Source: Methanosarcinales archaeon Met12 (GTDB lineage Archaea > Halobacteriota > UBA148 > JAJOKI01). Taken from it: a stretch of 64,000 nt of DNA. The position numbers and the translations under genes are program-made. Below, in pieces: positions 20,304 to 46,229 of this stretch. How positions within the stretch are numbered: position 1 is the first letter of the stretch; each line of letters begins with the position of its first letter. Below the pieces are notes generated by a model. The model saw nothing but the letters and a program-made list of their open reading frames with translations, did not search any database and was not told the origin of the DNA. The stretch is from contig CP017966.2 of assembly GCA_002813105.2 (NCBI GenBank), positions 790,745 through 854,744 of the forward strand. The letters run 5' to 3'.

Positions 20304-20549
20304 ATGATGATTGTAATAAAATCGAAGGTTGGTTCAAGGGGCCAGATCGTGATACCAAAGATAGCAAGGGACAATCTCGGCATGATCGAGGGTTCAGGGA
20401 TTATTATTGAGCTGGCAGATGATGGGATACAAATCAAATCGGCAGAAAAAGACATATTGTCGAAGTGGAGCAGGATTGCAGAAGAAGAGGGCATGGATGT
20501 AAAAAAAGAGATAAAATACGGGGATAGGTTGTATGAAGAGATATTCTGA
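20304..20549 (+). CDS. vapB: AbrB/SpoVT-type antitoxin VapB
   Basis: KVGSRGQIVIPKIARDNLGMIEGSGIII. Confidence 0.8.
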   Translation: MMIVIKSKVGSRGQIVIPKIARDNLGMIEGSGIIIELADDGIQIKSAEKDILSKWSRIAEEEGMDVKKEIKYGDRLYEEIF

Positions 20550-20970
20550 AACAGTATACCTTGATGCAAACTTCTTCATTTTCTCGTTGCTCGATAAAAC
20601 GGAAGTTGGCGAAGATGCAAGGATGATATATCAAAAGATGGTCGAAGGAAAACTAAATACTGCTACATCGTCTCTGACATTTGACGAAATGATGTGGGCA
20701 CTGGTCAAAGCAAATAAGAGGCATCTAATAAAGGATGCCGTGAATGACATCTACAAAACTCGGAATTTGATAATATTACCTGTCTCAATCTCTATCCCAT
20801 TAAATGCAATTGAACTGATATTAAAAGGTCTAAATCCAAGGGACGCTTTTCATGTAAGCTGTATGATGGAAAACAAGATAACAACGATTATTTCAGACGA
20901 TCGAGATTTCAAGGCGATCGAGGATATCAAGTGCTTCAATTTCAAGGATTTTCTTTTGGAGATAGCGTAA
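20533..20970 (+). CDS. vapC: PIN-domain toxin VapC
   Basis: VYLDANFFIFSLLD and ISDDRDF motifs. Overlaps vapB. Confidence 0.85.
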   Translation: MKRYSETVYLDANFFIFSLLDKTEVGEDARMIYQKMVEGKLNTATSSLTFDEMMWALVKANKRHLIKDAVNDIYKTRNLIILPVSISIPLNAIELILKGLNPRDAFHVSCMMENKITTIISDDRDFKAIEDIKCFNFKDFLLEIA

Positions 20971-20993
20971 CTTAGACCGCTAAGGATAATAAG

Positions 20994-21020
20994 AAAAATA
21001 AAAAATTAGGGAAGAAGGGA
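20994..21020. repeat. left direct repeat flanking the COG2405/UPF0175 TA cassette
   Basis: AAAAATAAAAAATTAGGGAAGAAGGGA, compared with 22009-22036 (one A-run indel only). Confidence 0.7.
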
Positions 21021-21064
21021 CATCCCAGATGGAACATCTTGGTGTGTCTGCGAATTGTCCCAAA

Positions 21065-21628
21065 TTAGGGATTTGTATATCGCTCGAGTTCATGCAGGAT
21101 GCCGAGTAGGACTAAGAGATTTGGGTCGTCACGTGAGAATAGTTTTTTCAATACTTTCTCTGCCCCCTCGCTGGTTACAATGCTCTTTTTGATGTCCCAG
21201 ATCGGAGATCTGGGAGAGTTGTAGTCCCGAAGGGACTTCAACAATCCCCATAGTGGCAGGTAGCAAATGGGAACGCATCTGAGCCCGAGTTTTGAGGCAG
21301 TGCTTATCGCGAGCTTATCATCCAATAAAATCTCAGGTAAATCCAGCTGGAGTGCCAATGCAATGGCCGCACACTCCCCCCTCCCCATCTTCCCTCTGCT
21401 GAGAAGTGAACTGAGGTATTTCATGCCTGTCCTGTTCAGCTCTTCTTTCTCGATGAAACCCTCCTCTATCAGTAGACTTATTCGTTGAACGTGCTTTTTT
21501 GGCCTCCTATGTTCATCGAAAACCTCGGTTGGAACATAGATTTTCGAGTATCTCTTCTTCGCGAGCAGTATCAGGCTCTCGTCTTTAGGTAGATCGATGA
21601 TGATGGATGCGTCGGCGGAGGCTTTCAT
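21065..21628 (-). CDS. COG2405/DUF3368-type PIN-like toxin
   Basis: GRGECAAIALALQLDLPEILLDDKLAISTASKLGLRCV matches the DUF3368 core. Confidence 0.6.
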   Translation of the reverse strand: MKASADASIIIDLPKDESLILLAKKRYSKIYVPTEVFDEHRRPKKHVQRISLLIEEGFIEKEELNRTGMKYLSSLLSRGKMGRGECAAIALALQLDLPEILLDDKLAISTASKLGLRCVPICYLPLWGLLKSLRDYNSPRSPIWDIKKSIVTSEGAEKVLKKLFSRDDPNLLVLLGILHELERYTNP

Positions 21629-21632
21629 CCCC

Positions 21633-21950
21633 TCAGACCTCTGCACCGAGCTCTTCGAGAAGCAGTTTTTTGATGTTCTCAACGTCTATGTCTCTGGGTA
21701 CTTTTTTGCTTTCAATGAAATCGATGAAATCAGGTAGTGATAGCTTTGCGAGTCTCGCCGCTCTCTCGAGAGAGGCTTTTTCTTTTTTATATAACTCCAG
21801 TGCCAGTTCCTTTCTTTTCTCCTCGATTCCTACCTCGAAGACCTCTCTGATGACCGCTGATTTACTCTTCTTCTCTATTCTCCCCAGCTCATCAAGCTCT
21901 GCCACAAAGTTTTTTGAAATCCTAAATCCTACGTATTTGGTTTCTGCCAT
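21633..21950 (-). CDS. UPF0175-family antitoxin
   Basis: LALELYKKEKASLERAARLAKLSLPDFIDFIESKKV is the UPF0175 HTH pattern. Confidence 0.65.
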   Translation of the reverse strand: MAETKYVGFRISKNFVAELDELGRIEKKSKSAVIREVFEVGIEEKRKELALELYKKEKASLERAARLAKLSLPDFIDFIESKKVPRDIDVENIKKLLLEELGAEV

Positions 21951-22064: not shown

Positions 22065-23303
22065 TTACTCTTCTTTGCGTCTCAGCACCAGATATGCTAC
22101 CGCAAGCAGTCCGAGGATTGCGAATATCGCTCCGAATCCTGGAACTGGTACTGGTGTGGGTGTTGGCGTAGGCGTCGGAGTTGGTGTAGGTGTTGGCACT
22201 GGTGTAGGCGTCGGAGTTGGTGTTGGAGTTGGTGTAGGCGTTGGCACGACCACTACTGCCTCAAGGACGTGTACGGTCGTCCGTTCTGCTGGTGTGCCTA
22301 AGATTTCGACTTCAACCTCCCATGCTCCTATTGCGAAGCCGGTTGTGTTGAACTCTGCAGTCACCCTACCATCTACAACCACTGGGCGTGCCAGTGCGAC
22401 GGCCCCAGCAGGTCCTGTCAGCGTTACGGTTGCCAGTTTACCAGCCATCCTGTTCGTCTCTGCTTCAACGGTCAAGTCTCTGCCCACTGTAACATTTGCA
22501 ATGGGAAGAATCGTCAGGATGTCTCTCTCGACCCTGAACTCCCTGATGGTCAGTATGTCGTCACTGCCTGCAACGGTTGCTCTAGCCCTAATCATGGATG
22601 TAATCTCTGCGATTGTTCTACCAGCGTAGTGACCCCGAGCCGCAGTCAGGTTCGCACCTATTATTACATCTGTTCTTCCATCCCTGCCTGGATGTACCAC
22701 GAACACGGTGTATGTGCCTCTTGTCACTGCTGTTGCGAACGGTCTCTGTTCGTATGTCCAGTCAGCTGCCCTGACGGTGACATTGCCACTGAAGTCTATG
22801 CGTGAAATGTCGTTCCTGACCACTATCATGCCGACCCATGGGGCACCACGTGCTCTACCATCGACCCTCATGTCTACGGTATCGCTCTCAGCTGTGACTG
22901 CCGGTACGTTTACGACTAAATCGCCTTCAACCAGTCGTATCGAAGTGACTGCGTCTGGGGATGGTTTGATGCCTGATACGTCAGTGGCGTATACGTTTAT
23001 CCTGTAGGTGCCTGGCAGTAGTCCGCTAGTGACCCATGTGTGCCTGTAGACATTAGCGGCATCCACTCGCGTGAATACCACTGTCACGTTCTCGCCAGCC
23101 GGGTTTATGACACGGATGGTCGCACCCAAGTTACCCGTCACCGTACCCGTGATGTCCACCCTCTCGCCGATTATGGCGGTCGTCGGTGCGGATACGGTTG
23201 CCAAACCCCTGCCCACGGTGATGACAATCGATGCCTCTCTCATTGGAACGGCGACACGGTCCGTAGCCGTCACGGTGAATGTGCGGTCCATGGCGAACTC
23301 CAT
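22065..23303 (-). CDS. PGF-CTERM surface (S-layer-like) glycoprotein, C-terminal portion
   Basis: Repeated Ig-like beta-rich modules, a PT-rich linker, then PVPGFGAIFAILGLLAVAYLVLRRKEE (PGF-CTERM archaeosortase signal). No signal peptide of its own. Confidence 0.8.
   Translation of the reverse strand: MEFAMDRTFTVTATDRVAVPMREASIVITVGRGLATVSAPTTAIIGERVDITGTVTGNLGATIRVINPAGENVTVVFTRVDAANVYRHTWVTSGLLPGTYRINVYATDVSGIKPSPDAVTSIRLVEGDLVVNVPAVTAESDTVDMRVDGRARGAPWVGMIVVRNDISRIDFSGNVTVRAADWTYEQRPFATAVTRGTYTVFVVHPGRDGRTDVIIGANLTAARGHYAGRTIAEITSMIRARATVAGSDDILTIREFRVERDILTILPIANVTVGRDLTVEAETNRMAGKLATVTLTGPAGAVALARPVVVDGRVTAEFNTTGFAIGAWEVEVEILGTPAERTTVHVLEAVVVVPTPTPTPTPTPTPTPVPTPTPTPTPTPTPTPVPVPGFGAIFAILGLLAVAYLVLRRKEE
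22144..22250. repeat. low-complexity coding repeat (Pro-Thr linker)
   Basis: GGTGT(A/T)GG-type hexamer reiteration encoding PTPTPTPTPTPTPVPTPTPTPTPTPTPTPVPV. Confidence 0.85.
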
Positions 23304-24671: not shown

Positions 24672-24698
24672 CTGATGTCATCGCCTTATCTCTGGAAT
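24672..24698. repeat. left direct repeat flanking the hicAB cassette
   Basis: CTGATGTCATCGCCTTATCTCTGGAAT, 25/27 identical to 25297-25323. Confidence 0.75.
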
Positions 24699-24728
24699 GT
24701 TTTGTGGTGGTGGCGAAAATTTATGTAT

Positions 24729-24752
24729 GTTGAACCACATAGGGATTACAAC
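24729..24752. repeat. degenerate solo H2 hairpin of the composite palindromic element family
   Basis: GTTGAACCACATAGGGATTACAAC compared with GTTGAAATCCCATAGGGATTACAAC at 40006-40030. Confidence 0.55.
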
Positions 24753-24809
24753 TATCACCGAACCCCAGAGATAATGGTCTCAAGAACGGTTCGAGTATGG
24801 ATAAAGACG

Positions 24810-25016
24810 ATGAAATTTAAAGTAATTGTAAGTGAAGGGGAAGACGGATGGTACGTTGTTGAATGCCCTGCCTTGCCTGGATGTGTTTCTCAAGGAAAAA
24901 CTATAGAGGATGCCTTAGAAAATATTAAAGATGCCATCCAGGGTTGTTTAGAAGTTCTAAATCAAAGAGCAAGAGCATTCAGTGTCCATGATAAAGTGGT
25001 AGAGGTAGTTGTTTAA
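24810..25016 (+). CDS. hicB: HicB-family antitoxin
   Basis: MKFKVIVSEGEDGWYVVECPALPGCVSQGKTIEDALENIKDAI (UPF0150/HicB fold). Confidence 0.8.
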   Translation: MKFKVIVSEGEDGWYVVECPALPGCVSQGKTIEDALENIKDAIQGCLEVLNQRARAFSVHDKVVEVVV

Positions 25017-26204: not shown

Positions 26205-26612
26205 TTAGCATACTTCCTCAGGCGACTTTACCTCGATTTCCGTTATTCTTTTAAACTCTTCATCCCTTGTAACTAGGGCACATCTCCGAACTTTGCATGT
26301 GGAGACGATAATCGCATCTGGAAGTCTCACCTTATATTTGGCTCTGATCGTCGATGCTTCTTTCGCGATGGATATATCCACATCGATGATTGTGAAGTTG
26401 TTAATGCTCATTATGTCTATGAGAAACTTTTCCCCTTTTTCAATCTCCCTGCTCGATTGGAACCCGCTTAAGATTTCCGCTATACATATCACAGAAGTGA
26501 AGCCAACATGTTTTCCTTTATGAATGTTTTCGAGTACCATCTTCGCTGCGTGATAATTTTCTTCTTCGTTTAGAATGCTCAGGAAGATGTTGGTGTCTAC
26601 AAACAACCTCAT
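26205..26612 (-). CDS. vapC: PIN-domain toxin VapC
   Basis: MRLFVDTNIFLSIL and VTRDEEF motifs. Confidence 0.85.
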   Translation of the reverse strand: MRLFVDTNIFLSILNEEENYHAAKMVLENIHKGKHVGFTSVICIAEILSGFQSSREIEKGEKFLIDIMSINNFTIIDVDISIAKEASTIRAKYKVRLPDAIIVSTCKVRRCALVTRDEEFKRITEIEVKSPEEVC

Positions 26613-26632
26613 ACAGTTACTTCTCTCGTTCT

Positions 26633-26863
26633 TCACCTCTCCCACTCATCCCGTATCCGCATCTGGTAATTCATGCTCTTTCCAAATATGCCCTTTCCCA
26701 GCCCAACGAGGTCTGCTATTGGCTGACTTGGGGATTTTTTCAGCACGATTTTTTCACCTTCAACTTCGAACATCACTTTTCCTCCTGTCTTGATGTCCAG
26801 TAGTCTCCTCATCCGCTGGGGGATGGTGACTTGTCCCTTTTTTGTGATTTTACTACACTCCAT
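26633..26863 (-). CDS. vapB: AbrB/SpoVT-type antitoxin VapB
   Basis: KKGQVTIPQRMRRLLDIKTGGKVMFEV. Confidence 0.8.
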   Translation of the reverse strand: MECSKITKKGQVTIPQRMRRLLDIKTGGKVMFEVEGEKIVLKKSPSQPIADLVGLGKGIFGKSMNYQMRIRDEWER

Positions 26864-30741: not shown

Positions 30742-30784
30742 GTTGAAATGTTGTAACTCCGTCTAAATCTGTTGATTTAGTCGG
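30742..30784. repeat. X-type imperfect hairpin plus H2-arm remnants
   Basis: GTTGAAATGTTGTAAC followed by CCGTCTAAATC TGTT GATTTAGTCGG. This is the reverse orientation of the X hairpins at 34004 and 41232. Confidence 0.6.
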
Positions 30785-30823
30785 TTTTTAATCTACGTCA
30801 TAACGAAGATGTGAGTGATATAT

Positions 30824-33911: not shown

Positions 33912-33937
33912 TGTAGCCCTCTTATTATTTTGTGTAT

Positions 33938-34088
33938 GTCGCAGATGGAACATGTCACAGTTCGGAGAACTGTGAGAGTTGTATTTCCTTCGGAAATTCA
34001 ACACCGACTAACTCAGAAGAGTTAGACGGACTCACAGATCTTCGATCTGTGACCTCTGCGAGAGTTGTAACCCTGAAAGGGTTTCAAC
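33938..34088. repeat. nest of composite palindromic elements (H1, H2 and X hairpins)
   Basis: Partial H1 (GTCGCAGATGGAACAT), then a full 49-nt H1-H2 unit at 33954-34002, X hairpin at 34004-34029, H1 at 34032-34052, an orphan half-H1, and H2 at 34064-34088. Confidence 0.75.
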
Positions 34089-34090
34089 AT

Positions 34091-35035
34091 TTATATAAAC
34101 CTTATTGATGCTCCAGTGTTTCTTGCACGTACGGTCATGACGTCGCCTCCAATACTAGTTTTCAGATGCTCCTTTACGGCATCCTGAAGTCCAGAGGGTT
34201 GATCGGCAATTCCATACACGAGTGGGCCAAAGGAACTCATCCCAGCGCCTGCTGCGCCGTTCTGAAGCATCACGTCCATTATTTCCCTGGCAATCGGCTG
34301 GAGCTCGATTTCCCTTCGCTTAAAGCCGATATCTTGGATTCGATTAATCGCGGACCCGAAGGTCGTCAAATCCTCCTCAAATAGGGCAGGCAGCAATTCC
34401 ATGAGTATCACATGCGAGACGGCTTGTACCTCCCTTATGGGAATCGGACATTCTCTTTGAAATATGTCGACCTCCCTCACACCAGACGCTCCCTGCAGAT
34501 TTGGAATGGCCAGCACGATATCCCAGTCTGGAAAATCGTGCCTTATCAGCACTGGAGGTGGTGAAGCATGACTAACTGCTGATGGCTTAAATCCTTTCTC
34601 CTCGAATTTGTGCCCGCCATCGAGGATAAATCCTCCCTGCTCGAATGCAGCAACGCCTATGCCAGATGTGCCGCCCCTCTTGACAATCTTCGCCAGCTCA
34701 TAGACGGACAATCCGAGGTCGTATAACATATTTACAGCCATTCCCGCAGCGAGAGATGCCTGGGTGCCGGAGCCCAGACCCACGTGTGAGAGTATATCCT
34801 CCTCGATGGTGATATGTGCACCCCTGTCTCCACCTGCTATCATTTCAGCGCTCCTCCTCACGCGTTCGCACAGGGCGCTGTCGCCCTCTACTGTCACTCC
34901 GTCGGCTTTTTCTGCAGAGAGGATGAGAGATGGCTGGTCTAATGTGATGCCAATGCCGCCGTCCACCCTTCCCAGCGCCCCGTTTAAGTCGATCAGCGTG
35001 ATATGTATCCTCGATGGCGTCCTGATCTTGATCAT
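34091..35035 (-). CDS. beta-ribofuranosylaminobenzene 5'-phosphate (RFAP) synthase, GHMP-kinase fold
   Basis: MIKIRTPSRIHITLIDLNG and the HVGLGSGTQ motif, as in the methanopterin-pathway RFAP synthase. Confidence 0.8.
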   Translation of the reverse strand: MIKIRTPSRIHITLIDLNGALGRVDGGIGITLDQPSLILSAEKADGVTVEGDSALCERVRRSAEMIAGGDRGAHITIEEDILSHVGLGSGTQASLAAGMAVNMLYDLGLSVYELAKIVKRGGTSGIGVAAFEQGGFILDGGHKFEEKGFKPSAVSHASPPPVLIRHDFPDWDIVLAIPNLQGASGVREVDIFQRECPIPIREVQAVSHVILMELLPALFEEDLTTFGSAINRIQDIGFKRREIELQPIAREIMDVMLQNGAAGAGMSSFGPLVYGIADQPSGLQDAVKEHLKTSIGGDVMTVRARNTGASIRFI

Positions 35036-35065
35036 CGTTTTAATCGTTCCACCACTCTTCTGTCT

Positions 35066-35114
35066 GTCGCAGTTCGGAGAACTGCGAGAGTTGTAATTCC
35101 TTTGGAATTTCAAC
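35066..35114. repeat. 49-nt H1-H2 composite palindromic element
   Basis: GTCGCAGTTCGGAGAACTGCGAGAGTTGTAATTCCTTTGGAATTTCAAC, in the 5' region of the RFAP synthase gene. Confidence 0.75.
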
Positions 35115-35176
35115 ATCAACGAATTTTTCAACAGTCATATCAGTAGCCCTGAACCAAAATACAAAAAACCATGTCA

Positions 35177-35398
35177 CTAACTCGATGCTTCTTGTAGTAC
35201 ATCCGCTAGATATTCTCTTCGTTTGCTGGAGACATATGATGTGATCCTTTGAATGAACGTGGCGGTCTTAGTATCAAAATACTTCTCGCCGCACTGCGTA
35301 CACACCTCTGCAGGCATCTCTCTTACGGAAACACCTCTAATCTCAACTTCGACGAGTTTCTTTTCGACTTTGCCGCCACACGAATAGCAGGTCTTCAT
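35177..35398 (-). CDS. YgiT/MqsA-type zinc-ribbon protein (putative antitoxin)
   Basis: CYSCGG...CTQCGEKYF, 73 aa. 4-nt overlap with the upstream DUF4258 gene. Confidence 0.6.
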   Translation of the reverse strand: MKTCYSCGGKVEKKLVEVEIRGVSVREMPAEVCTQCGEKYFDTKTATFIQRITSYVSSKRREYLADVLQEASS

Positions 35399-35700
35399 TT
35401 CACGCTTCTCCTTTGTTTATAGTCATCTTTCCATATATTTAAGTCTGGCCTATAAACTATTATGATAATCAATGCATCCTCATGGGGCGCGCATACTACA
35501 TGTATGGGTGATTTGTGTATCGAGCACAGCAAGAGGCAGCTGGCCCCTCTGGGATCATCTGGATGTTCCTCGATAACATCAAAATCTTGTTTCAGGGCTT
35601 GCTCTAGTTCTTCAGCAGTGATATTTTCAAGGGACTCTTTTTCAACCGCATGTAACGTGTGTCGTATGTTGTTAAGGCGTGATATTATTTCATCTCGCAT
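35395..35700 (-). CDS. DUF4258-like toxin
   Basis: C-terminal [22 protein letters not shown] pattern. ATG 35700 is preferred because the longer ORF would overlap ileS by 145 nt. Confidence 0.6.
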
Positions 35701-38700
35701 TTCCCAATCCCAAACTCCATCTCGATGTTTTCTATGGTCCATTTCTTTACCAAATCGCCTTTTATCGTGATATCTATGCCCATATTCAGACTCTCTGCCC
35801 TGACCTCGCCTGAGATGAAATCTCTCCATGCACTCATTAAACCAACCACTCGCCCATCCTGGATTCTCATGGACACGTCTATTTTGTCCATCATATCGAG
35901 GTTCAGCTCGCGTCGCATGTCCTGAATGCGTCTGATGACCTCTCTGGCATACCCCTCTGCAATGAGTTCATCGGTCAACTCGACATCCACGTATATGCGC
36001 CCGCCAGAGAACTCTGCCACGCTGATGTGTTCGGGAACGCTCTCCTCAAATCCAACCATCTCCTCGGTGATGAGGACCTCACCGTCAGGTAGTTTGAGTT
36101 CGTATCCCCTAGCAATTTTCCTTTTTACTACCCTGCCATCGATCTTTTTGAGCGCATCGATGACCTTGCCAGCCCTTCCCTTGAACTCCGGTCCGATGCG
36201 ATTGGGGTTCGGAACGACCTTGAGTCCGAGCTCCTCCCACTCCTCTCCCGCCTCGAGTACGATGAGCTCCTTTGTATTTGCCTGCTCCTTGATAACGCTT
36301 TCAAGTGATTTGACCGCCTTGTTCACGGCGTCGTTATCTGGCGCTATCACGATTACCTTCACAGGCCACCTCAGCTTCCGCTTGGCCTTCTGGCGCGCAT
36401 TCGAGGCGGCTTCAACCACCCTCCGTGCGACATCCATATGCGCTTCAAGAGTTTTATTTATCGACTTTTTGTCTGCGACCGTCCAGTCGCACATATGCAC
36501 GGTAGGCAGCCGCATTGCGACATCGCCTTCATGACTCACGTTCTGGTAGATGTCCTCTGCAATGAACGGCGTAAAGGGCGCCATCAGCTTGACAATGGTA
36601 TCCGTCACAGCCCATATCGTGCGATATGCCGCGAACTTGTCTGGGTCATCTTCCTCTATCCACATCCTCGGGCGTATCAATCTGATGTACCAGCGCGACA
36701 AATCCTCCACTATGAAATTCTGGAGCGCTCTGGTCGCTCGGTGCAGCTCATACCTGGCCATCGCATCCTCTACTTCTAAAATCAGCGAATTAACCTTTGA
36801 TAGGACCCATTTATCCTCAATCCTGAGATGTGATTTCACGGATTCCGACGACACAGCAGAGGGGTCGAAATTGTCAAGCGCCATATAGGGAAGCGGAAAG
36901 CGATACACGTTCCATAGAATGTTCAACATGCGATGCGCATTCTGGACATCCTCTATGATAAATCGAAGGTCTTCCCACGGCGCGTTTGATGAAAGGACAT
37001 AAAAGCGCAGCGTATCCGCGCCGTACCTGTTGATGACATCCTCTGGCGTCACCACATTCCCCATACTTTTGGACATCTTCCTGCCGAGGTCGTCCAGCGT
37101 GAAGCCGTGCATTAACACGCTCTTGTAGGGCGCCCGGCCAAACGCTATCATGGATGCGCCAAGCTGCGAATAGAACCACCCTCTCGTCTGGTCATGTCCC
37201 TCGGTGATGAAGTCCGCAGGCCACCATGTATCGAACGCCCCTGATTTGTGCGGGAAGTCCAGCCCAGCCCATGAAGCAATCGCTGAATCGAACCAGACGT
37301 CGAAAACGTCCTCCACTCTGCGCATATCCTCGGTGCATTTTGGACATTTTAAACGGATTTTATCCAGGTCTGGTCGATGCAGTTCCATATCGTCAGGAAG
37401 GTCGCCTGCCCTTTTCTCGAGCTCATCACGCGTTCCGATCACGTCCATGCTACCGCACTCGCATATCCATATCGGCAGCGGGATGCCCCAGTATCTCTGG
37501 CGCGATATGCACCAATCTCTGGCGCCCTCTATCCAGTCCTTAAACCTGGCAGAGCCTGCCCATCTTGGATGCCATTCGACCTTCTCGATTTCCTTCAGCA
37601 TCGAATCCTTCAACTCCGAGACCTTGAGGAACCACTGCTCCGTCGCCAGATAGATAATGGGAGTTTTACAGCGCCAGCAGTGGCCGTATCTGTGCGTAAC
37701 ATTTCCATGCGCCAGCAGCACGCCTTTTTTATCAAGGTCTTCTATGACCTGCGGGTTTGCATCGAAAACATACATGTCCACATACTTGCCTGCATATGCC
37801 GTATAACGTCCATCAGGTCCCACAGGACAAAAGATGGGCAGTTCGTGCTCCGTACCCAATCCAAAGTCGTCCATACCATGTCCTGGAGCGATGTGCACGC
37901 ATCCAGTATTTTCGACGGTCACAAAATCGGCAAGATATACCTTGTGCTCAAAGCCTGCCTGCGCTGGAACGACATCACTTAAAGGATTTTCATACTCAAG
38001 CCCGACCAGGTCCCTGCCACGCATTGTTTCGAGAACCTCGTAATCCTGATAGTGCCCCTCCTTCAGAACGTTCTCGACCAGTTCTGATGCCATGATCAAT
38101 ATCTCGTCCCGGTTTTCGTCCCATGCACGCACCTTTGAATACTTAAAATCCGAATGCACCGCAACCGCTATGTTGGAAGGGATTGTCCACGGAGTTGTCG
38201 TCCAGATTACGATGTGGGTGTCGTCCTCTCCGACAAGTCGAAACTCCTTTGGAGTTTCAGACAGTCGGGAAATCTTCGATTTCCGACTTACTGGAAATTT
38301 GACATAAATCGAGGGGTCGGTTCGATCCCAGTACTCGACCTCGGAATCCGCGATAGCGGTTTCACACCGCGAACACCAGTTGACAACCCTTTTGCCCCCC
38401 TCGAGCAGTCCCTTTTTGTGTGCCTGTTTTATCGTCCACCAGGCAGCTTCGATGTAACCGTCATCAATCGTCATGTAGGGGTCATCCCAGTCAAGCCATG
38501 CGCCGAGTCGCTTAAACTGCGCTGTCATCTGTTCCTTATTCTGGAGGGCAAAGCGCTTGCACTCATCGATAAATCGATCGGAACCATATGCTTCGATATC
38601 CTTTTTCGTCTTGAAACCGAGATGCTCCTCCACTTTGACCTCGATGGGGAGGCCGTGCATATCCCATCCTGCTCTGTCCAGGACGTCAAATCCCTTCATC

Positions 38701-38924: not shown

Positions 38925-39058
38925 ACCTCAACTGCTGCGTTTCTGAAATGCTTGTATCCTAATTAAAGATTTCAGTATGACATATGTTTTAAATAACGCC
39001 GAGGAAAGTTATATCTCACATATATGAATATGATATACTAAATACAGGGGGCACGAGG

Positions 39059-40042
39059 ATTAAAGAAGTAATCTGGACCGAGAAATATCGACCGAGGACC
39101 TTGAAGGATGTTTTAGGGCAGGACGCCATAATCGAGCGCCTGCAATCATATGTTAAATCCGGCAGCCTGCCGCACCTGCTTTTTTCTGGTCCGCCGGGGG
39201 TTGGCAAGACGGCATCGGCAATCGCCATCGCAAGGGAGATGTTCGGAGAGGTGTGGAGAAGCAACTTTACAGAGCTCAATGCCTCGGATGAAAGGGGCAT
39301 CGATGTCGTGCGAAATAAGATAAAGAACTTCGCCAGGACAGCTTCCCTGGGCAAAGCCGCGTTCAAGATAATATTTCTCGACGAAGCGGATGCCCTCACC
39401 CACGATGCACAATCTGCACTGCGCCGAACCATGGAGCGCTACACCAGCACGTGTAGATTCATTCTGAGCTGTAACTATTCGTCTAAAATCATCGAACCGA
39501 TTCAGTCCAGATGTGCTGTATATCGATTCAAGCCGATATCTGACGAGGCCGTTGAGAAGTGCATCAGGCAGATTGCAAAAGAAGAGGGCTTGCAGCTCAT
39601 GGACGACGGAATAGAAGCCATCAAATATGTGACGAGAGGGGATATGCGCAAGGCGATAAATTCGCTGCAGTCCGCTGCAGTTATGGGCAAAAAGATCGAT
39701 GCAGATATGATATACCAGACAACCGCCACGGCATGCCCTGGAGAGATGAACGAATTGATCGAGTTATCTCTGAAAGGCGATTTTATGGGGGCAAGGGATA
39801 AATTGGATGCACTGCTCATAGACCACGGTATGGCTGGCGAAGATGTAATATATCAAGTTCACAGGGCAATAATGGACTTCGGCGACATTTCGGACAATCT
39901 GAGAGTCCAGCTGCTTGACAAAATTGGCGAGATTGACTTCAGGCTAACAGAAGGCGCAAACGAAAGAATACAATTGGAGGCGCTGATAGCCCATTTCATG
40001 CTGGTGTTGAAATCCCATAGGGATTACAACTCTCGCAGATGA
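39059..40042 (+). CDS. rfcS: replication factor C small subunit
   Basis: Walker A GPPGVGKT, FLDEADALT and the SRC motif QSRCAVYRF. The conserved IWTEKYRP is encoded upstream of the first canonical start (TTG 39101), so the true start is unresolved. Confidence 0.9.
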   Translation: MKEVIWTEKYRPRTLKDVLGQDAIIERLQSYVKSGSLPHLLFSGPPGVGKTASAIAIAREMFGEVWRSNFTELNASDERGIDVVRNKIKNFARTASLGKAAFKIIFLDEADALTHDAQSALRRTMERYTSTCRFILSCNYSSKIIEPIQSRCAVYRFKPISDEAVEKCIRQIAKEEGLQLMDDGIEAIKYVTRGDMRKAINSLQSAAVMGKKIDADMIYQTTATACPGEMNELIELSLKGDFMGARDKLDALLIDHGMAGEDVIYQVHRAIMDFGDISDNLRVQLLDKIGEIDFRLTEGANERIQLEALIAHFMLVLKSHRDYNSRR

Positions 40043-40054
40043 AACATCTGCGAC
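40006..40054. repeat. 49-nt H2-H1 composite palindromic element overlapping the rfcS 3' end
   Basis: GTTGAAATCCCATAGGGATTACAACTCTCGCAGATGAAACATCTGCGAC. It encodes the last 12 codons and the stop of rfcS. Confidence 0.8.
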
Positions 40055-40114
40055 ACTGGGAAGAAGTAGGTTTCTTTGTTTTACATACTACGCCGTGAGA
40101 TATTCTGTGCCTGA

Positions 40115-40209
40115 TTTTATCAAAACTTTGAGTACAAAGTTTTTATCAAAACTTTGAGTACAAAGTTTTTATCAAAACTTTGAGTACAAAGTTTTTATCA
40201 AAACTTTGA
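40115..40209. repeat. 26-nt tandem repeat, 3 full copies plus a partial one
   Basis: TTTTATCAAAACTTTGAGTACAAAGT x3 plus a 17-nt partial. Each unit contains the ACTTTG AGTA CAAAGT hairpin. The last copies form the 3' end of the DUF2283 gene. Confidence 0.9.
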
Positions 40210-41225: not shown

Positions 41226-41281
41226 GCAACACCGACTAACTTAGAAGAGTTAGACGGACTCACAGATGTTTCATCTGTGAC
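41226..41281. repeat. X hairpin plus H1 hairpin unit
   Basis: GCAAC A CCGACTAACTTAGAAGAGTTAGACGG AC TCACAGATGTTTCATCTGTGA C, in the divergent spacer upstream of rps8e. Confidence 0.7.
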
Positions 41282-43445: not shown

Positions 43446-44132
43446 ATGATTGATTTACATTCTCATACGACTTTTAGCGATGGAGAACTGATACCTGCCG
43501 AGTTAGTGCGCCGAGCAGTAGTTCAAGGATATGCGGCAATCGGACTCACTGACCATGTTGACTTTTCCAATGTAGAATATGTCCTGACCAACCTGAAAAA
43601 GATGAACCTCGAAGGAGAAATGAATATACGGGTCGTAATTGGAGTCGAGATTACTCACATACCTCCTGCTAAGATTGAAAAATTGGTGACCAAAGCAAAA
43701 CAGCTTGGAGCAGAACTGATTGTAATACATGGAGAAACCATGATGGAGCCGGTTGCACCTGGGACCAACAGCGCAGCAGTTCGTCTGGGGGATGTGGACA
43801 TATTGTCTCACCCAGGATTCATCTCGATTGAGGATGCCGAAATAGCACGAGATAATGAAGTATATCTTGAGATCACGTCGCGTCAGGGACACTGCATGAC
43901 AAACGGCTATGTCGCAAAAATTGCCAACGAAGCCGGTGCGATGCTGGTGGTAAATTCGGATGCACACAGTCCGACCGACTTGATTACGAAGAAGAAGGCG
44001 GTCGATATTGCGATGGCGGCGGGACTGGATAAAAATGATGCGGATAAGGCGACAGGAGCCAATCCTCTTAAACTGTTGAAGTCCCTTGGGGCGAAGACGG
44101 TCAAGGGCACTGCCTTCGATTACAAATGTTGA
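43446..44132 (+). CDS. PHP-domain phosphoesterase
   Basis: MIDLHSHTTFSDGE...GLTDHVD...VNSDAH metal-ligand pattern. Confidence 0.7.
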   Translation: MIDLHSHTTFSDGELIPAELVRRAVVQGYAAIGLTDHVDFSNVEYVLTNLKKMNLEGEMNIRVVIGVEITHIPPAKIEKLVTKAKQLGAELIVIHGETMMEPVAPGTNSAAVRLGDVDILSHPGFISIEDAEIARDNEVYLEITSRQGHCMTNGYVAKIANEAGAMLVVNSDAHSPTDLITKKKAVDIAMAAGLDKNDADKATGANPLKLLKSLGAKTVKGTAFDYKC

Positions 44133-44480: not shown

Positions 44481-45554
44481 GTGTATGATATGGAAGAGAT
44501 AAAGGCAGCCGAGGAAGTCGAAAAGAAGATTAGAGTAATCAAAGATAGCCCTGTAGAGTCTCAACAAGTCGAAACTCCAACAGAGTTTCAGACAGTCGGG
44601 AAATCTTCGATTTCCGACTCACGCGAGGAACGGAGAGAGTATGAAGAGGCTAAAATGCAGTGCTCGGAATGTAACAGCTCCCAACTCGTGCACGATTACG
44701 AGAGAGCAGAACTTGTATGCAGCGAGTGCGGACTTGTACTTGAAGAGGATTGTATCGATATGGGGCCCGAGTGGCGGGCCTTCGATCATGACCAGCGAAT
44801 GAAGCGTTCCAGAGTGGGGGCGCCAATGACGTATACGATTCACGACAAGGGTTTGAGCACGATGATCGACTGGCGGAACAGAGATTCATGTGGCAAGTCA
44901 GTATCATCGAAAAACAGGGCACAGTTATATCGGCTGAGAAAATGGCAGCGCAGAATCAGGGTGAACAATGCGACCGAACGAAATCTCGCATTTGCGTTAT
45001 CGGAGTTGGACCGAATGGCATCAGCACTGGGTATGCCAAGAAACATCAGAGAGTCTGCCGCGATTATCTACCGTAAAGCGGTGGAGAAAAATTTAATCAG
45101 GGGGCGCAGCATCGAGGGAGTTGCTGCAGCCGCATTGTATTCCTCGTGCCGGATGAGTTCCGTGCCAAGAACGCTGGACGAGATCGCAGAGGTGTCGAGG
45201 GTGAGCAGAAAGGAGATAGGGCGAACGTATCGATTCGTATCCAGAGAGCTTAAACTCAAACTCATGCCGACGTCTCCAATTGACTATGTATCGCGATTTA
45301 CCTCTGGATTAAATCTCAAAGGTGAGGTGCAGTCCAAGGCAGTTGAAATCTTGCGCCATGCTGCAGAGAGGGAGCTGACGTCAGGGAGAGGTCCCACGGG
45401 GGTCGCAGCAGCCGCGATATATATCGCATCCATTCTTTGCGGAGAACGCAAAACGCAGAGAGAAGTGGCAGATGTGGCAGGCGTGACTGAAGTAACCATC
45501 AGAAACAGGTATAAGGAGTTGGCAGAGGAGCTCGACATAGATATAGTCCTTTAA
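44481..45554 (+). CDS. tfb: transcription initiation factor TFB
   Basis: Zinc ribbon [24 protein letters not shown], the B-finger and two cyclin folds. There is a 60-residue N-terminal extension that contains the 56-nt element. Confidence 0.92.
44564..44619. repeat. 56-nt double-hairpin element inside the tfb CDS (sense)
   Basis: ACAAGTCGAAACTCCAACAGAGTTTCAGACAGTCGGGAAATCTTCGATTTCCGACT. Confidence 0.85.
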
Positions 45555-45632
45555 ACAAAGATTGCTTATGCAATCTTTTAAACAAAGATTGCTTATGCAA
45601 TCCTTTAAACGGTCATTCTCAAAGAGAATGAC
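45547..45632. terminator. three tandem hairpins in the tfb/membrane-gene convergent spacer
   Basis: TCYTTTAAAC + AAAGATTGC TTAT GCAATCTTT occurs twice as a 27-nt tandem duplication, followed by GGTCATTCTC AAA GAGAATGACC. Confidence 0.6.
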
Positions 45633-46229
45633 CTAAACAAGGAGCATTATAACGTCGATAAAATACGCTATGGCAAAACATCCCACCAGCGCACCTATGG
45701 TAATTGCAATGAACACCTTATACGGGTCCATACCTATTATGCGTCCAATAATTGACGCCATAACCGCTCCAGTTCCCTGAAATGGTATAATCACAAGAAT
45801 GACGATACCTGTAAAGGCAAATCGCCTCATCCGGGAGTGTTCTTCTAAAAGTATCCCACCCCTCCTCTCCATATTTGCAATGGTCTCTCCGAGTACTGGA
45901 ACCCTCTTGAGATGGTCAAAGTTCCATACGAGAAATAGTGCGGTTACGATATCGATGAACGCAATGGAAGATGCAGCGAGAGCAGGGTGAACGTCAGCAA
46001 CAACAGCGATGGGAATCACGGATTCTTTTCCAGCCGGCGGGATAACATAAGCAGTCATCATGACGATTACCTTGGCAAAGATGCCCTCATCCAACGTTAG
46101 ATACATAATGAAGATTACTCCAGCTGCAATGTGAAAGGGAAGGACAAATTTAATTAATGCTGACATACTCCCTCTAAGGATATGGTCTTGTACCCTCTTC
46201 AATTTCAAAAGTAGGTCCATTTGATTCAT
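45633..46229 (-). CDS. small membrane protein (putative small multidrug-export family, COG2426-like)
   Basis: 198 aa, 4-5 TM, IPPAGKESVIPIAV motif. Confidence 0.5.
   Translation of the reverse strand: MNQMDLLLKLKRVQDHILRGSMSALIKFVLPFHIAAGVIFIMYLTLDEGIFAKVIVMMTAYVIPPAGKESVIPIAVVADVHPALAASSIAFIDIVTALFLVWNFDHLKRVPVLGETIANMERRGGILLEEHSRMRRFAFTGIVILVIIPFQGTGAVMASIIGRIIGMDPYKVFIAITIGALVGCFAIAYFIDVIMLLV

Follow-up and report, generated by a model that had tools for sequence, protein, structure and literature searches.

The window analysed here is a stretch of 64,000 nucleotides from Met12, a non-methanogenic Methanocellales archaeon with a circular genome of 1,067,436 bp (accession number CP017966; PMC11176372). 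It carries the genes ileS, rfcS, tfb, rps8e and rpl10e and the gene of RFAP synthase, and between and within these genes lie short repeats that fold into hairpins. The paper describing Met12 (PMC11176372) makes no mention of repeats, palindromes, hairpins, insertions or transposons. The S8e protein of the window is encoded identically on metagenome contigs of assemblies GCA_002581605.1 and GCA_002581705.1, which originate from The Cedars, a serpentinising spring (PMC7005843), and these contigs are 99.6–100% identical to the window. The ends or gaps of these short-read contigs fall exactly at the repeats, which break short-read assemblies of the Met12 clade.

The window was compared with the contig of a relative (L037), about 84% identical to and syntenic with the window at 30.6–42 kb, with a second relative (L017; about 88% identical) and with two more distant relatives (L038 and L039). 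The survey of elements covered a small portion of the genomes of Met12 and its relatives. Elements of type A consist of hairpin H1, the dinucleotide GA and hairpin H2, those of type C of H1 followed by hairpin X', and those of type B have a second hairpin of their own type. The following elements and insertions are present in the window:

21193–21243, plus strand: full A element (H1-GA-H2, 51 nt), in frame within a PIN-like ORF; 76.4 bits
24728–24773, minus strand: decayed A element (H2 at 24729–24752, degenerate H1) upstream of a HicB-like ORF; 22 bits, E = 0.0018
30754–30801, plus strand: 48-nt insertion with an X' hairpin (30759–30784, T.T mismatch) between divergent genes; L037 without insertion
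33937–34089, plus strand: nest of 3 x 51 nt, with an outer A element formed by 33937–33952 plus 34055–34089
33953–34003, plus strand: inner full A element of the nest; 74.4 bits; DNA fold of -14.1 kcal/mol, z = -6.0
34004–34054, minus strand: C element inside the nest (H1 then X', 51 nt), 93% identical to 41227–41281
35065–35115, plus strand: full A element, about 30 nt before the true start of RFAP synthase; 78.4 bits
38236–38289, minus strand: B element (54 nt), an 18-codon in-frame insertion in ileS; 22.7 bits
40005–40055, minus strand: full A element near the 3' end of rfcS, an exact 51-nt insertion relative to L037; 75.4 bits
41225–41284, minus strand: 60-nt insertion with a C element (H1 at 41260–41280, X' at 41232–41257) upstream of rps8e; L037 without insertion
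44074–44097, minus strand: decayed H2 remnant; in L017 the site is occupied by about 190 nt of intact modules
44567–44620, minus strand: another B element, sharing 92% identity with that in ileS, in frame in an N-terminal extension of tfb

Three full copies had been quoted in the original prediction, which was made from this DNA alone, and all of them are present; a search with the pattern, allowing up to three mismatches, gave three matches as against none in 100 shuffles. Its count of at least three full copies missed a fourth, at 21193–21243, which encodes LLKSLRDYNSPRSPIWDI within a PIN-like ORF of 206 codons (21068–21685, minus strand). The frame at this copy is free of stops for 147 codons upstream and 41 codons downstream. 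Further pieces that had been placed at 24729–24752, 30742–30784 and 41226–41281 proved to be real.

Structure and covariation of the elements

The unit of the A element is exactly 51 nt long (TGTC..AACA), as given by an alignment of 27 copies and by an exact empty site, and not 49 nt as first described. Its layout is T-G-[TCRCAG-3 bp / 3-nt loop / 3 bp-CTGYGA]-GA-[GTTG-T-A-5 bp / 3-nt loop / 5 bp-T-T-CAAC]-A, in which H1 has 9 bp and a 3-nt loop and H2, after the GA, has 11 positions including a T.T mismatch. The H1 module measures 24 nt, and about 27 nt are taken up by the second hairpin, be it H2, X' or the B type. The 54-nt B elements are detected weakly by the A model, and further families of hairpin modules are present in the relatives. 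Both H1 variants of the original prediction (TCGCAG/CTGCGA and TCACAG/CTGTGA) were found again, together with a third (TCCCAG/CTGGGA), and the H2 variants are as it had listed them.

Covariation was assessed in the alignment of 27 full A copies from seven related genomes. The stem cells were paired in 98.6% of cases, against 88.2% after shuffling, and two-sided changes occurred at nine of the 19 stem pairs. There were 52 compensatory cells, against 12.9 in the shuffled alignments, a number that was equalled in none of 500 shuffles, and pairing fell to 30–45% when the partner column was slid by 1–3 positions. This bears out the claim that substitutions are paired so that the stem is kept; a compensatory excess and presence of the motif in relatives had been proposed as tests, and the excess was seen and seven assemblies carry the motif. 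The T.T mismatch, said to be always kept, occurs in all 27 copies (columns 30 and 46) and also in the GTCG...CGAC variant. G.U cells (3) were not preferred over A.C cells (4). In the one pair of orthologous copies (loci L011 and L015) there are two differences, both uncompensated, so the hairpins are not obviously maintained in place.

The window contains 28 hairpins with at least nine pairs, compared with 2–9 in shuffled sequences. A, B and C elements adopt the same two-hairpin DNA fold (-14 to -16 kcal/mol, z = -5.4 to -8.8). Their second hairpins share an unpaired T, which on the H1-first strand lies four or five positions away from the base; this T belongs to the T.T mismatch of H2 and of X', and in B it is bulged. 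The H1 loop on the H1-first strand consists of purines in 21 of the 27 copies, C-GAA-G being the most frequent form. Three-nucleotide loops, C-GAA-G especially, are typically found in stable hairpins of DNA rather than of RNA. A scan of the window with the Rfam covariance models yielded no family at the gathering score, and a tRNA scan of the window found none. A likeness of the elements to the CRISPR repeat of Met12 (ATTTCAATCCCACTATGG...) reached about the 99th percentile of shuffles for one copy and not for the others, and was attributed to chance.

Insertion sites and host genes

L037 provides the empty site for five insertions of the window, namely the nest, ileS, rfcS, the site upstream of rps8e and the X' insertion. 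The sequence absent from L037 amounts to 154 nt (153+1) at the nest, 54 nt in ileS, 51 nt in rfcS, 60 nt upstream of rps8e and 48 nt at the X' insertion. The junction in rfcS is exact (ATGyTGG^CTGGGA; 51 nt), and the target is not duplicated. L037 has an insertion of its own, a 24-nt H1 alone, which lies in frame in cofE. Single modules (H1 alone or H2 alone) are also inserted, which counts against the model of a two-ended transposon. With a two-hairpin unit of 51 nt and a single hairpin of 24 nt that inserts alone, the repeats would to our knowledge be among the smallest mobile elements. We conclude that the repeats are very probably mobile insertion elements; their mobile nature and their in-frame sites in essential genes are points missing from the original prediction.

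Insertion is polar and directed by a short motif. Among 26 independent left flanks, position -7 was T in all, position -6 was T in 19, position -5 was C or G in 24 and position -1 was A in 17, giving the target motif TT[C/G]NNNA^, which is always on the H1 side. The motif resembles the element's own 3' end (TTCAACA): flanks matched TTTCAACA, the end of the element, at a mean of 4.4 of 8 positions, against 2.1 +/- 0.26 at random sites, and the largest value among 2000 random sets was 3.0. It is a property of the target and not of the insert, because the L037 empty sites for the nest and the ileS copy already contain it. A systematic scan with shifted boundaries revealed no consistent flanking direct repeat of 3–5 nt; weak 2-nt flanking matches at shifted boundaries were seen in five of 19 copies (1.2 expected). 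Apparent 4-nt flanking repeats in two copies had suggested a target-site duplication, which the systematic scan did not support. Pairing of the target TTC with the GAA loop of H1 or the 5' arm of H2 was also considered and rejected, as the flanks do not covary with the loop and G at -5 (10 of 26 flanks) could not pair.

The spacer between the RFAP synthase gene and rpl10e had been described correctly as a series of modules, and nested insertions (3 x 51 = 153 nt) are the better reading of it. Its outer A element is split in the H1 loop by the inner A and C elements. Removal of 33953–34054 (2 x 51 nt) joins TGTCGCAGATGGAACA to TCTGCGAGAG... and restores a normal 51-nt element that agrees with the consensus at 44 of 51 positions. 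At a second locus of Met12 (L044), a C element lies at the same point of an H1 loop. The elements thus insert into one another, in the H1 loop, and they also form head-to-tail arrays. The RFAP synthase stop codon is followed by a TATA-like box (TTTATATAAA), and the nest lies directly behind this box. The box is kept in L037, L038 and L039, where it is 25–45 nt from the rpl10e start codon (ATG); the spacers of L038 and L039 measure 19 and 52 nt, and 21 kb of each of these two relatives contained no match to the element models. Since the nest directly follows the box, the Met12 box would either be displaced 153 nt farther from rpl10e or be the promoter of a leader with five hairpins.

Several copies lie within genes. 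The B copy of ileS adds 18 residues between VKFPV and VGEDD, which are absent from the 40 closest homologues and from the ileS of L037. In the AlphaFold model of IleRS (mean pLDDT 82.5), residues 219–231 of the insert have a pLDDT below 50 and form a coil between two strands. The A copy of rfcS replaces the ancestral ending AGSKNI* by the element-encoded VLKSHRDYNSRR*. The B copy of tfb, whose peptide is read in the opposite orientation, lies in an N-terminal extension whose frame is kept in L017; this extension is probably translated, because the internal ATG is ACG in L017. The homologues of RFAP synthase (310–326 aa) cover 91% of its 346-codon ORF and start about 32 codons later, which places the A copy at 35065 outside the protein and the real start at about 35035 on the minus strand. 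The rpl10e ORF is over-extended into the nest. The repeats thus mislead gene callers, with false N-terminal extensions of the RFAP synthase and L10e ORFs.

The relatives have in-frame copies in carB, thiC, elp3, trm1, hemD, a CobQ-like gene, the phosphopantothenate synthetase gene (two in tandem) and others, and the element interrupts the Pfam domains PPS_PS, ThiC, CPSase_L_D3 and a zf-like domain. Of about 37 A copies, at least 12 are located in long ORFs. The unit lengths (24, 51 and 54 nt) are all divisible by three, and stops are absent from four frames of the element out of six, all four of which are used; this allows copies in variable surface loops of essential proteins to survive as short inserted peptides. 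A match of an element-encoded peptide to Cas12f1-like_TNB (Pfam; E = 0.0068) was below the cut-off and was treated as chance.

Mechanism and rival explanations

The repeats are probably a non-autonomous hairpin element of the single-stranded DNA type, of the same kind as REP, RPE and MJRE. It would move as a folded single DNA strand that is cut and rejoined by a hairpin-recognising nuclease of the HUH/Y1 type (cf. IS200/IS605 and REP/RAYT), supplied in trans, and its spread would be limited to copies with intact hairpins. The covariation among copies would then arise because only foldable copies would spread. Such a mechanism fits the repeats because the junctions are exact and without duplication, insertion is polar, the target is like the right end, the subterminal hairpins have an unpaired T and 3-nt loops of the DNA type, and the elements are nested and form head-to-tail arrays. 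We infer the enzyme step from this anatomy, as no enzyme was found, and assign the HUH/Y1 type to it tentatively, by analogy.

The original prediction had suggested looking for a Y1 gene elsewhere in the genome. No Y1 or matching transposase and no IS605 entry is present in the published CDS table of Met12, which lists a 97-aa IS5 fragment and XerC/D, and no ORF for TnpA or TnpB adjoins the elements in the sampled loci. A crude regular-expression scan for HUH..Y gave no hit among 807 ORFs in about 333 kb of Met12 and its relatives. Searches of the ORFs adjoining elements against Pfam and NCBIfam returned toxin–antitoxin and housekeeping genes and no transposase, and an unassigned 316-aa ORF beside the X' insertion has no relative in the PDB and no HUH motif. 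A donor replicon was sought in viral contigs by three pattern scans, which gave chance matches without internal pairing, and among plasmids and phages by blastn with the nest, which found no match. Two features of the elements count against the proposed mechanism. The hairpins abut the element ends, and IS608-type elements have cleavage sites 10–19 nt from the hairpins; the conserved target bases lie 4–7 nt from the junction and do not adjoin it, which is atypical of IS200/IS605.

Spread without any transposase, by microhomology-driven template switching or gene conversion from head-to-tail arrays, would agree with the lack of a transposase in the CDS table. A DNA end in a TTCAACA-like sequence would mis-anneal at an array junction, copy one unit and return, a route that predicts precise insertions without target duplication beside look-alike motifs. 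The target motif does resemble the 3' end of the element, head-to-tail arrays (TTCAACA|TGTC) occur at loci L009, L017 and L020, and single modules and mosaic combinations exist. However, the best-kept target bases are -7 to -5 and not the positions -3 to -1 required for annealing of a primer, and seven imperfect bases are very little homology. The unpaired T is moreover kept in three unrelated second hairpins, which points to recognition by a protein, and we consider this route unlikely.

Whether the folded strand is RNA or single-stranded DNA had been left open in the original prediction; the DNA alternative fits the anatomy (no duplication, polarity, unpaired T and 3-nt loops), and we think it likely that the elements act at the DNA rather than the RNA level. 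A role as functional RNA structures (an mRNA stabiliser, terminator, processing site or small RNA), with dispersal being secondary, could draw on the strong covariation and on the nest, of which the 5' leader of rpl10e would consist should the TATA-like box still be in use. All five A-type copies of the window show the H2-first strand in the sense transcript, as the original prediction had stated of most copies for the GTTGAA...ACAAC-first orientation, but this does not extend to the intragenic copies of the relatives, in which the two orientations relative to the gene are equally frequent (about 7 vs 7). The RNA role is not supported, because there is no Rfam family at the gathering score, no excess of G.U over A.C, no overall orientation bias and no conservation at orthologous sites, where relatives lack copies. 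The 3-nt loops are of the DNA type, as in C-GAA-G, and many copies break up conserved protein domains, so that we regard this role as very unlikely. Archaeal mRNA introns exist, and the elements are strongly structured, which is the one, indirect, argument for the idea that intragenic copies are spliced out as a new small intron that leaves the proteins unaltered. This is extremely unlikely for copies whose unit lengths are all divisible by three and which, within genes, occupy stop-free frames only; moreover, the rfcS frame ends at the element's own stop codon, and the folds contain no bulge-helix-bulge. It is just as improbable that the repeats are double-stranded palindromic binding sites of a regulator or chromatin protein. 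Copies do lie near promoters (the nest at the TATA-like box, and those upstream of rps8e and the RFAP synthase gene), but a protein reading the duplex would fix the sequence, whereas the changes are paired in both arms; many copies lie within coding sequence, and the sites are not kept in relatives. The statement that the repeats are not simply an operator agrees with these observations.

Returning to the mobile hairpin element, a further-reaching proposal is that a genome of about 1 Mb without a recognisable transposase hosts active hairpin modules of 24–27 nt, which spread through host replication and repair or through an undescribed hairpin-specific nuclease among the hypothetical proteins and add peptides to essential proteins. 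We rate this as rather unlikely. If true, it would mean that peptides have repeatedly been added to IleRS, RFC, TFB, CarB, ThiC and Elp3 in archaea of hyperalkaline serpentinising systems. Exact empty sites, a sharp polar motif, compensatory stems, and public genomes and metatranscriptomes make the elements a testable system, which allows one to ask how hairpin elements spread and how they affect essential proteins and promoters, such as the rpl10e promoter with its 153 nt of hairpins.

Known systems and distribution

By analogy, the systems closest in behaviour are the Rickettsia palindromic elements (RPEs) and, in archaea, the MJRE of Methanocaldococcus jannaschii, and those closest in anatomy are REP/BIME and the miniatures of IS200/IS605. 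RPEs (Ogata et al. 2000) are described in the reviews PMC10969869 and PMC2229807 as palindromic selfish repeats of the small, reduced Rickettsia genome, which are found between genes and often in frame in conserved housekeeping genes, are translated in several frames and inserted at the protein surface, and have no known cognate transposase. As summarised there, they are bacterial, about 100–150 bp long, unrelated in sequence and in some cases bounded by TA ends, whereas the elements reported here measure 51–54 nt, consist of two independent hairpin modules and have a defined polar target motif and no target duplication. MJRE1–3 (Suyama, Lathe and Bork 2005, as cited in PMC2229807) are palindromic repeats with coding potential, three cases of which are given as intragenic. 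By this description, and not by sequence, they are an archaeal precedent with few in-frame fusions in a host of a different order. The feature common to both systems and to our elements is the location in frame in conserved protein genes without disruption (ileS and rfcS in Met12; carB, thiC, elp3, trm1, hemD, PPS and the CobQ-like gene in relatives). MJRE are longer than the elements reported here, and we know of no report of MJRE empty sites or of a target motif. Homology to RPE or MJRE is unlikely because the host range is one clade of Methanocellales.

Like REP/BIME, the repeats are short imperfect palindromes in many copies, in which stem changes are compensatory and an irregularity is conserved; they occur in both orientations and in mosaic and nested arrays, without target duplication, and single-stranded DNA hairpins are proposed for both. 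REPs, however, are extragenic and bacterial, start with a 5' tetranucleotide of the GTAG type and accompany a REP-flanked RAYT gene, whereas many of the elements here are intragenic, their ends are TGTC...AACA and no RAYT was found in the CDS table of Met12 or in the 333 kb scanned. As they are not restricted to extragenic DNA, they fall outside the definition of REP. With the miniatures of IS200/IS605 (PATEs of Haloquadratum) they share the lack of target duplication, polar insertion on the 3' side of a short motif that is rich in T and related to the right end, the subterminal imperfect hairpins with an unpaired T, and the kept strand polarity. Those miniatures are hundreds of bases long and have ends in common with full-length IS of the same genome; in the elements reported here, by contrast, the two hairpins are the whole element, 4 nt separate the conserved target bases from the junction, and a parent IS is not known. 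The repeats are not MITEs (DDE-derived) either, because their target is not duplicated and they lack real terminal inverted repeats; their ends are inverted over 3 nt only (TGT...ACA), and no parent IS was found.

The distribution of the family was assessed in 185,579 species genomes with a pattern in which the conserved core was fixed and the 13 inner bases of H2 were left free. Matches were obtained in seven archaeal assemblies of a single clade, including MAG-838 (Lost City) and Met33H (987-kb genome), and in four bacteria. The free inner bases of H2 were complementary in essentially all archaeal matches. The bacterial matches are due to chance, as the three in Microcoleus lacked stem complementarity and that in Streptomyces was a partial chance match only. 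Judged by these matches, the family appears to be specific to the Met12 clade of Methanocellales. A scan of metagenomes returned mostly contigs of Met12 itself from The Cedars and added three or four new loci.

Single modules and other hairpin families

The H1 hairpin, one module of the 51-54-nt mobile elements, was also found singly: in L037, a contig of a relative that is about 84% identical and syntenic, an H1-only module of 24 nt (AACTCGCAGATCTTCGATCTGCGA) is inserted, with the reading frame kept, in cofE, which encodes an F420 ligase (reverse complement, about position 1445), and the corresponding window position, 32107, is an empty site. The comparison of the occupied with the empty site shows that a lone hairpin module is able to insert by itself.

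The stretch 45547-45633, after tfb, comprises a tandem repeat of 27 nt (2.4 copies) and, next to it on the far side from tfb, a hairpin of 10 perfect base pairs, GGTCATTCTCAAAGAGAATGACC. This hairpin has an orthologous counterpart of 100% identity in a relative's locus (L017:3986-4008) and was found again in the locus L034 (3298-3411) at a non-orthologous site, where it belongs to a series of four 25-nt hairpins that differ from one another. The clade therefore has further hairpin-module families, of the GAAA...TTTC type. The tandem array at 40115-40209, which consists of 3.7 copies of a 26-nt unit (TTTTATCAAAACTTTGAGTACAAAGT; identity 100%, TRF score 190), is located directly 3' of the replication factor C small subunit gene rfcS and its inserted element (40005-40055). 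Each unit forms overlapping palindromes of 9-11 bp, and L037 carries unrelated sequence at this position.

Start codon and promoter regions

In the RFC small subunit, the conserved N-terminal sequence (RIKEVIWTEKYRP) is encoded in frame from 39053-39055, where the first codon is ACG instead of the ATG of L037. A G-rich, Shine-Dalgarno-like run precedes the ACG, and the frame upstream of it lacks ATG, GTG and TTG codons. ACG could be a non-canonical start, or the protein could be N-terminally shortened with its start at TTG 39101.

A palindromic TATA-like box (TTTATATAAA, 34090-34099) immediately follows the stop codon of the RFAP synthase gene and is kept in three relatives, in which its distance from the rpl10e ATG is 25-45 nt; this spacing fits an mRNA that is leaderless or has a short leader. 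The box and rpl10e of Met12 are separated by the 153-nt nest of three elements, and a GAGGG motif is present there 6 nt 5' of the rpl10e ATG. The divergent promoter region adjoining the X' insertion (30754-30801) contains an AT-rich 13-nt unit (ATATATAAGATTT) that is duplicated relative to L037 (30716-30741).

Proteins of relatives and of the element-rich part

The element-encoded peptide MLKSQRDYNSRRCSICDI of a relative corresponds to residues 112-137 of HemD (L034:872-1822) and gave a weak Pfam match, below the cut-off (E = 0.0068), to the TnpB/Cas12f zinc-finger region (Cas12f1-like_TNB); TnpB is a component of IS200/IS605 elements. This match is probably due to chance, arising from a CxxC motif. 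The PEP synthase/PPDK-like gene of the more distant relative Yes46-07 contains an intein (L038:14205-17720; Intein_splicing, LAGLIDADG) and encodes 1171 aa, compared with 753 aa for the intein-free orthologue of Met33H (L039).

The part of the window that is rich in elements has a high density of toxin-antitoxin-like genes (20533-21685, 24675-25016, 26205-26645, 35177-35829) of the PIN/VapC, HicB-like and YgiT/MqsA-type zinc finger with DUF4258 types. Three indels of 56-61 nt each distinguish 35335-35680 from L037, none of them a hairpin element. An ORF of 412 codons (22065-23303) closes with a long (PT)n tract, specified by tandem repeats of 12/18/36 nt (22152-22244), and, after it, a PGF-CTERM-like hydrophobic tail; its product is probably a surface protein.
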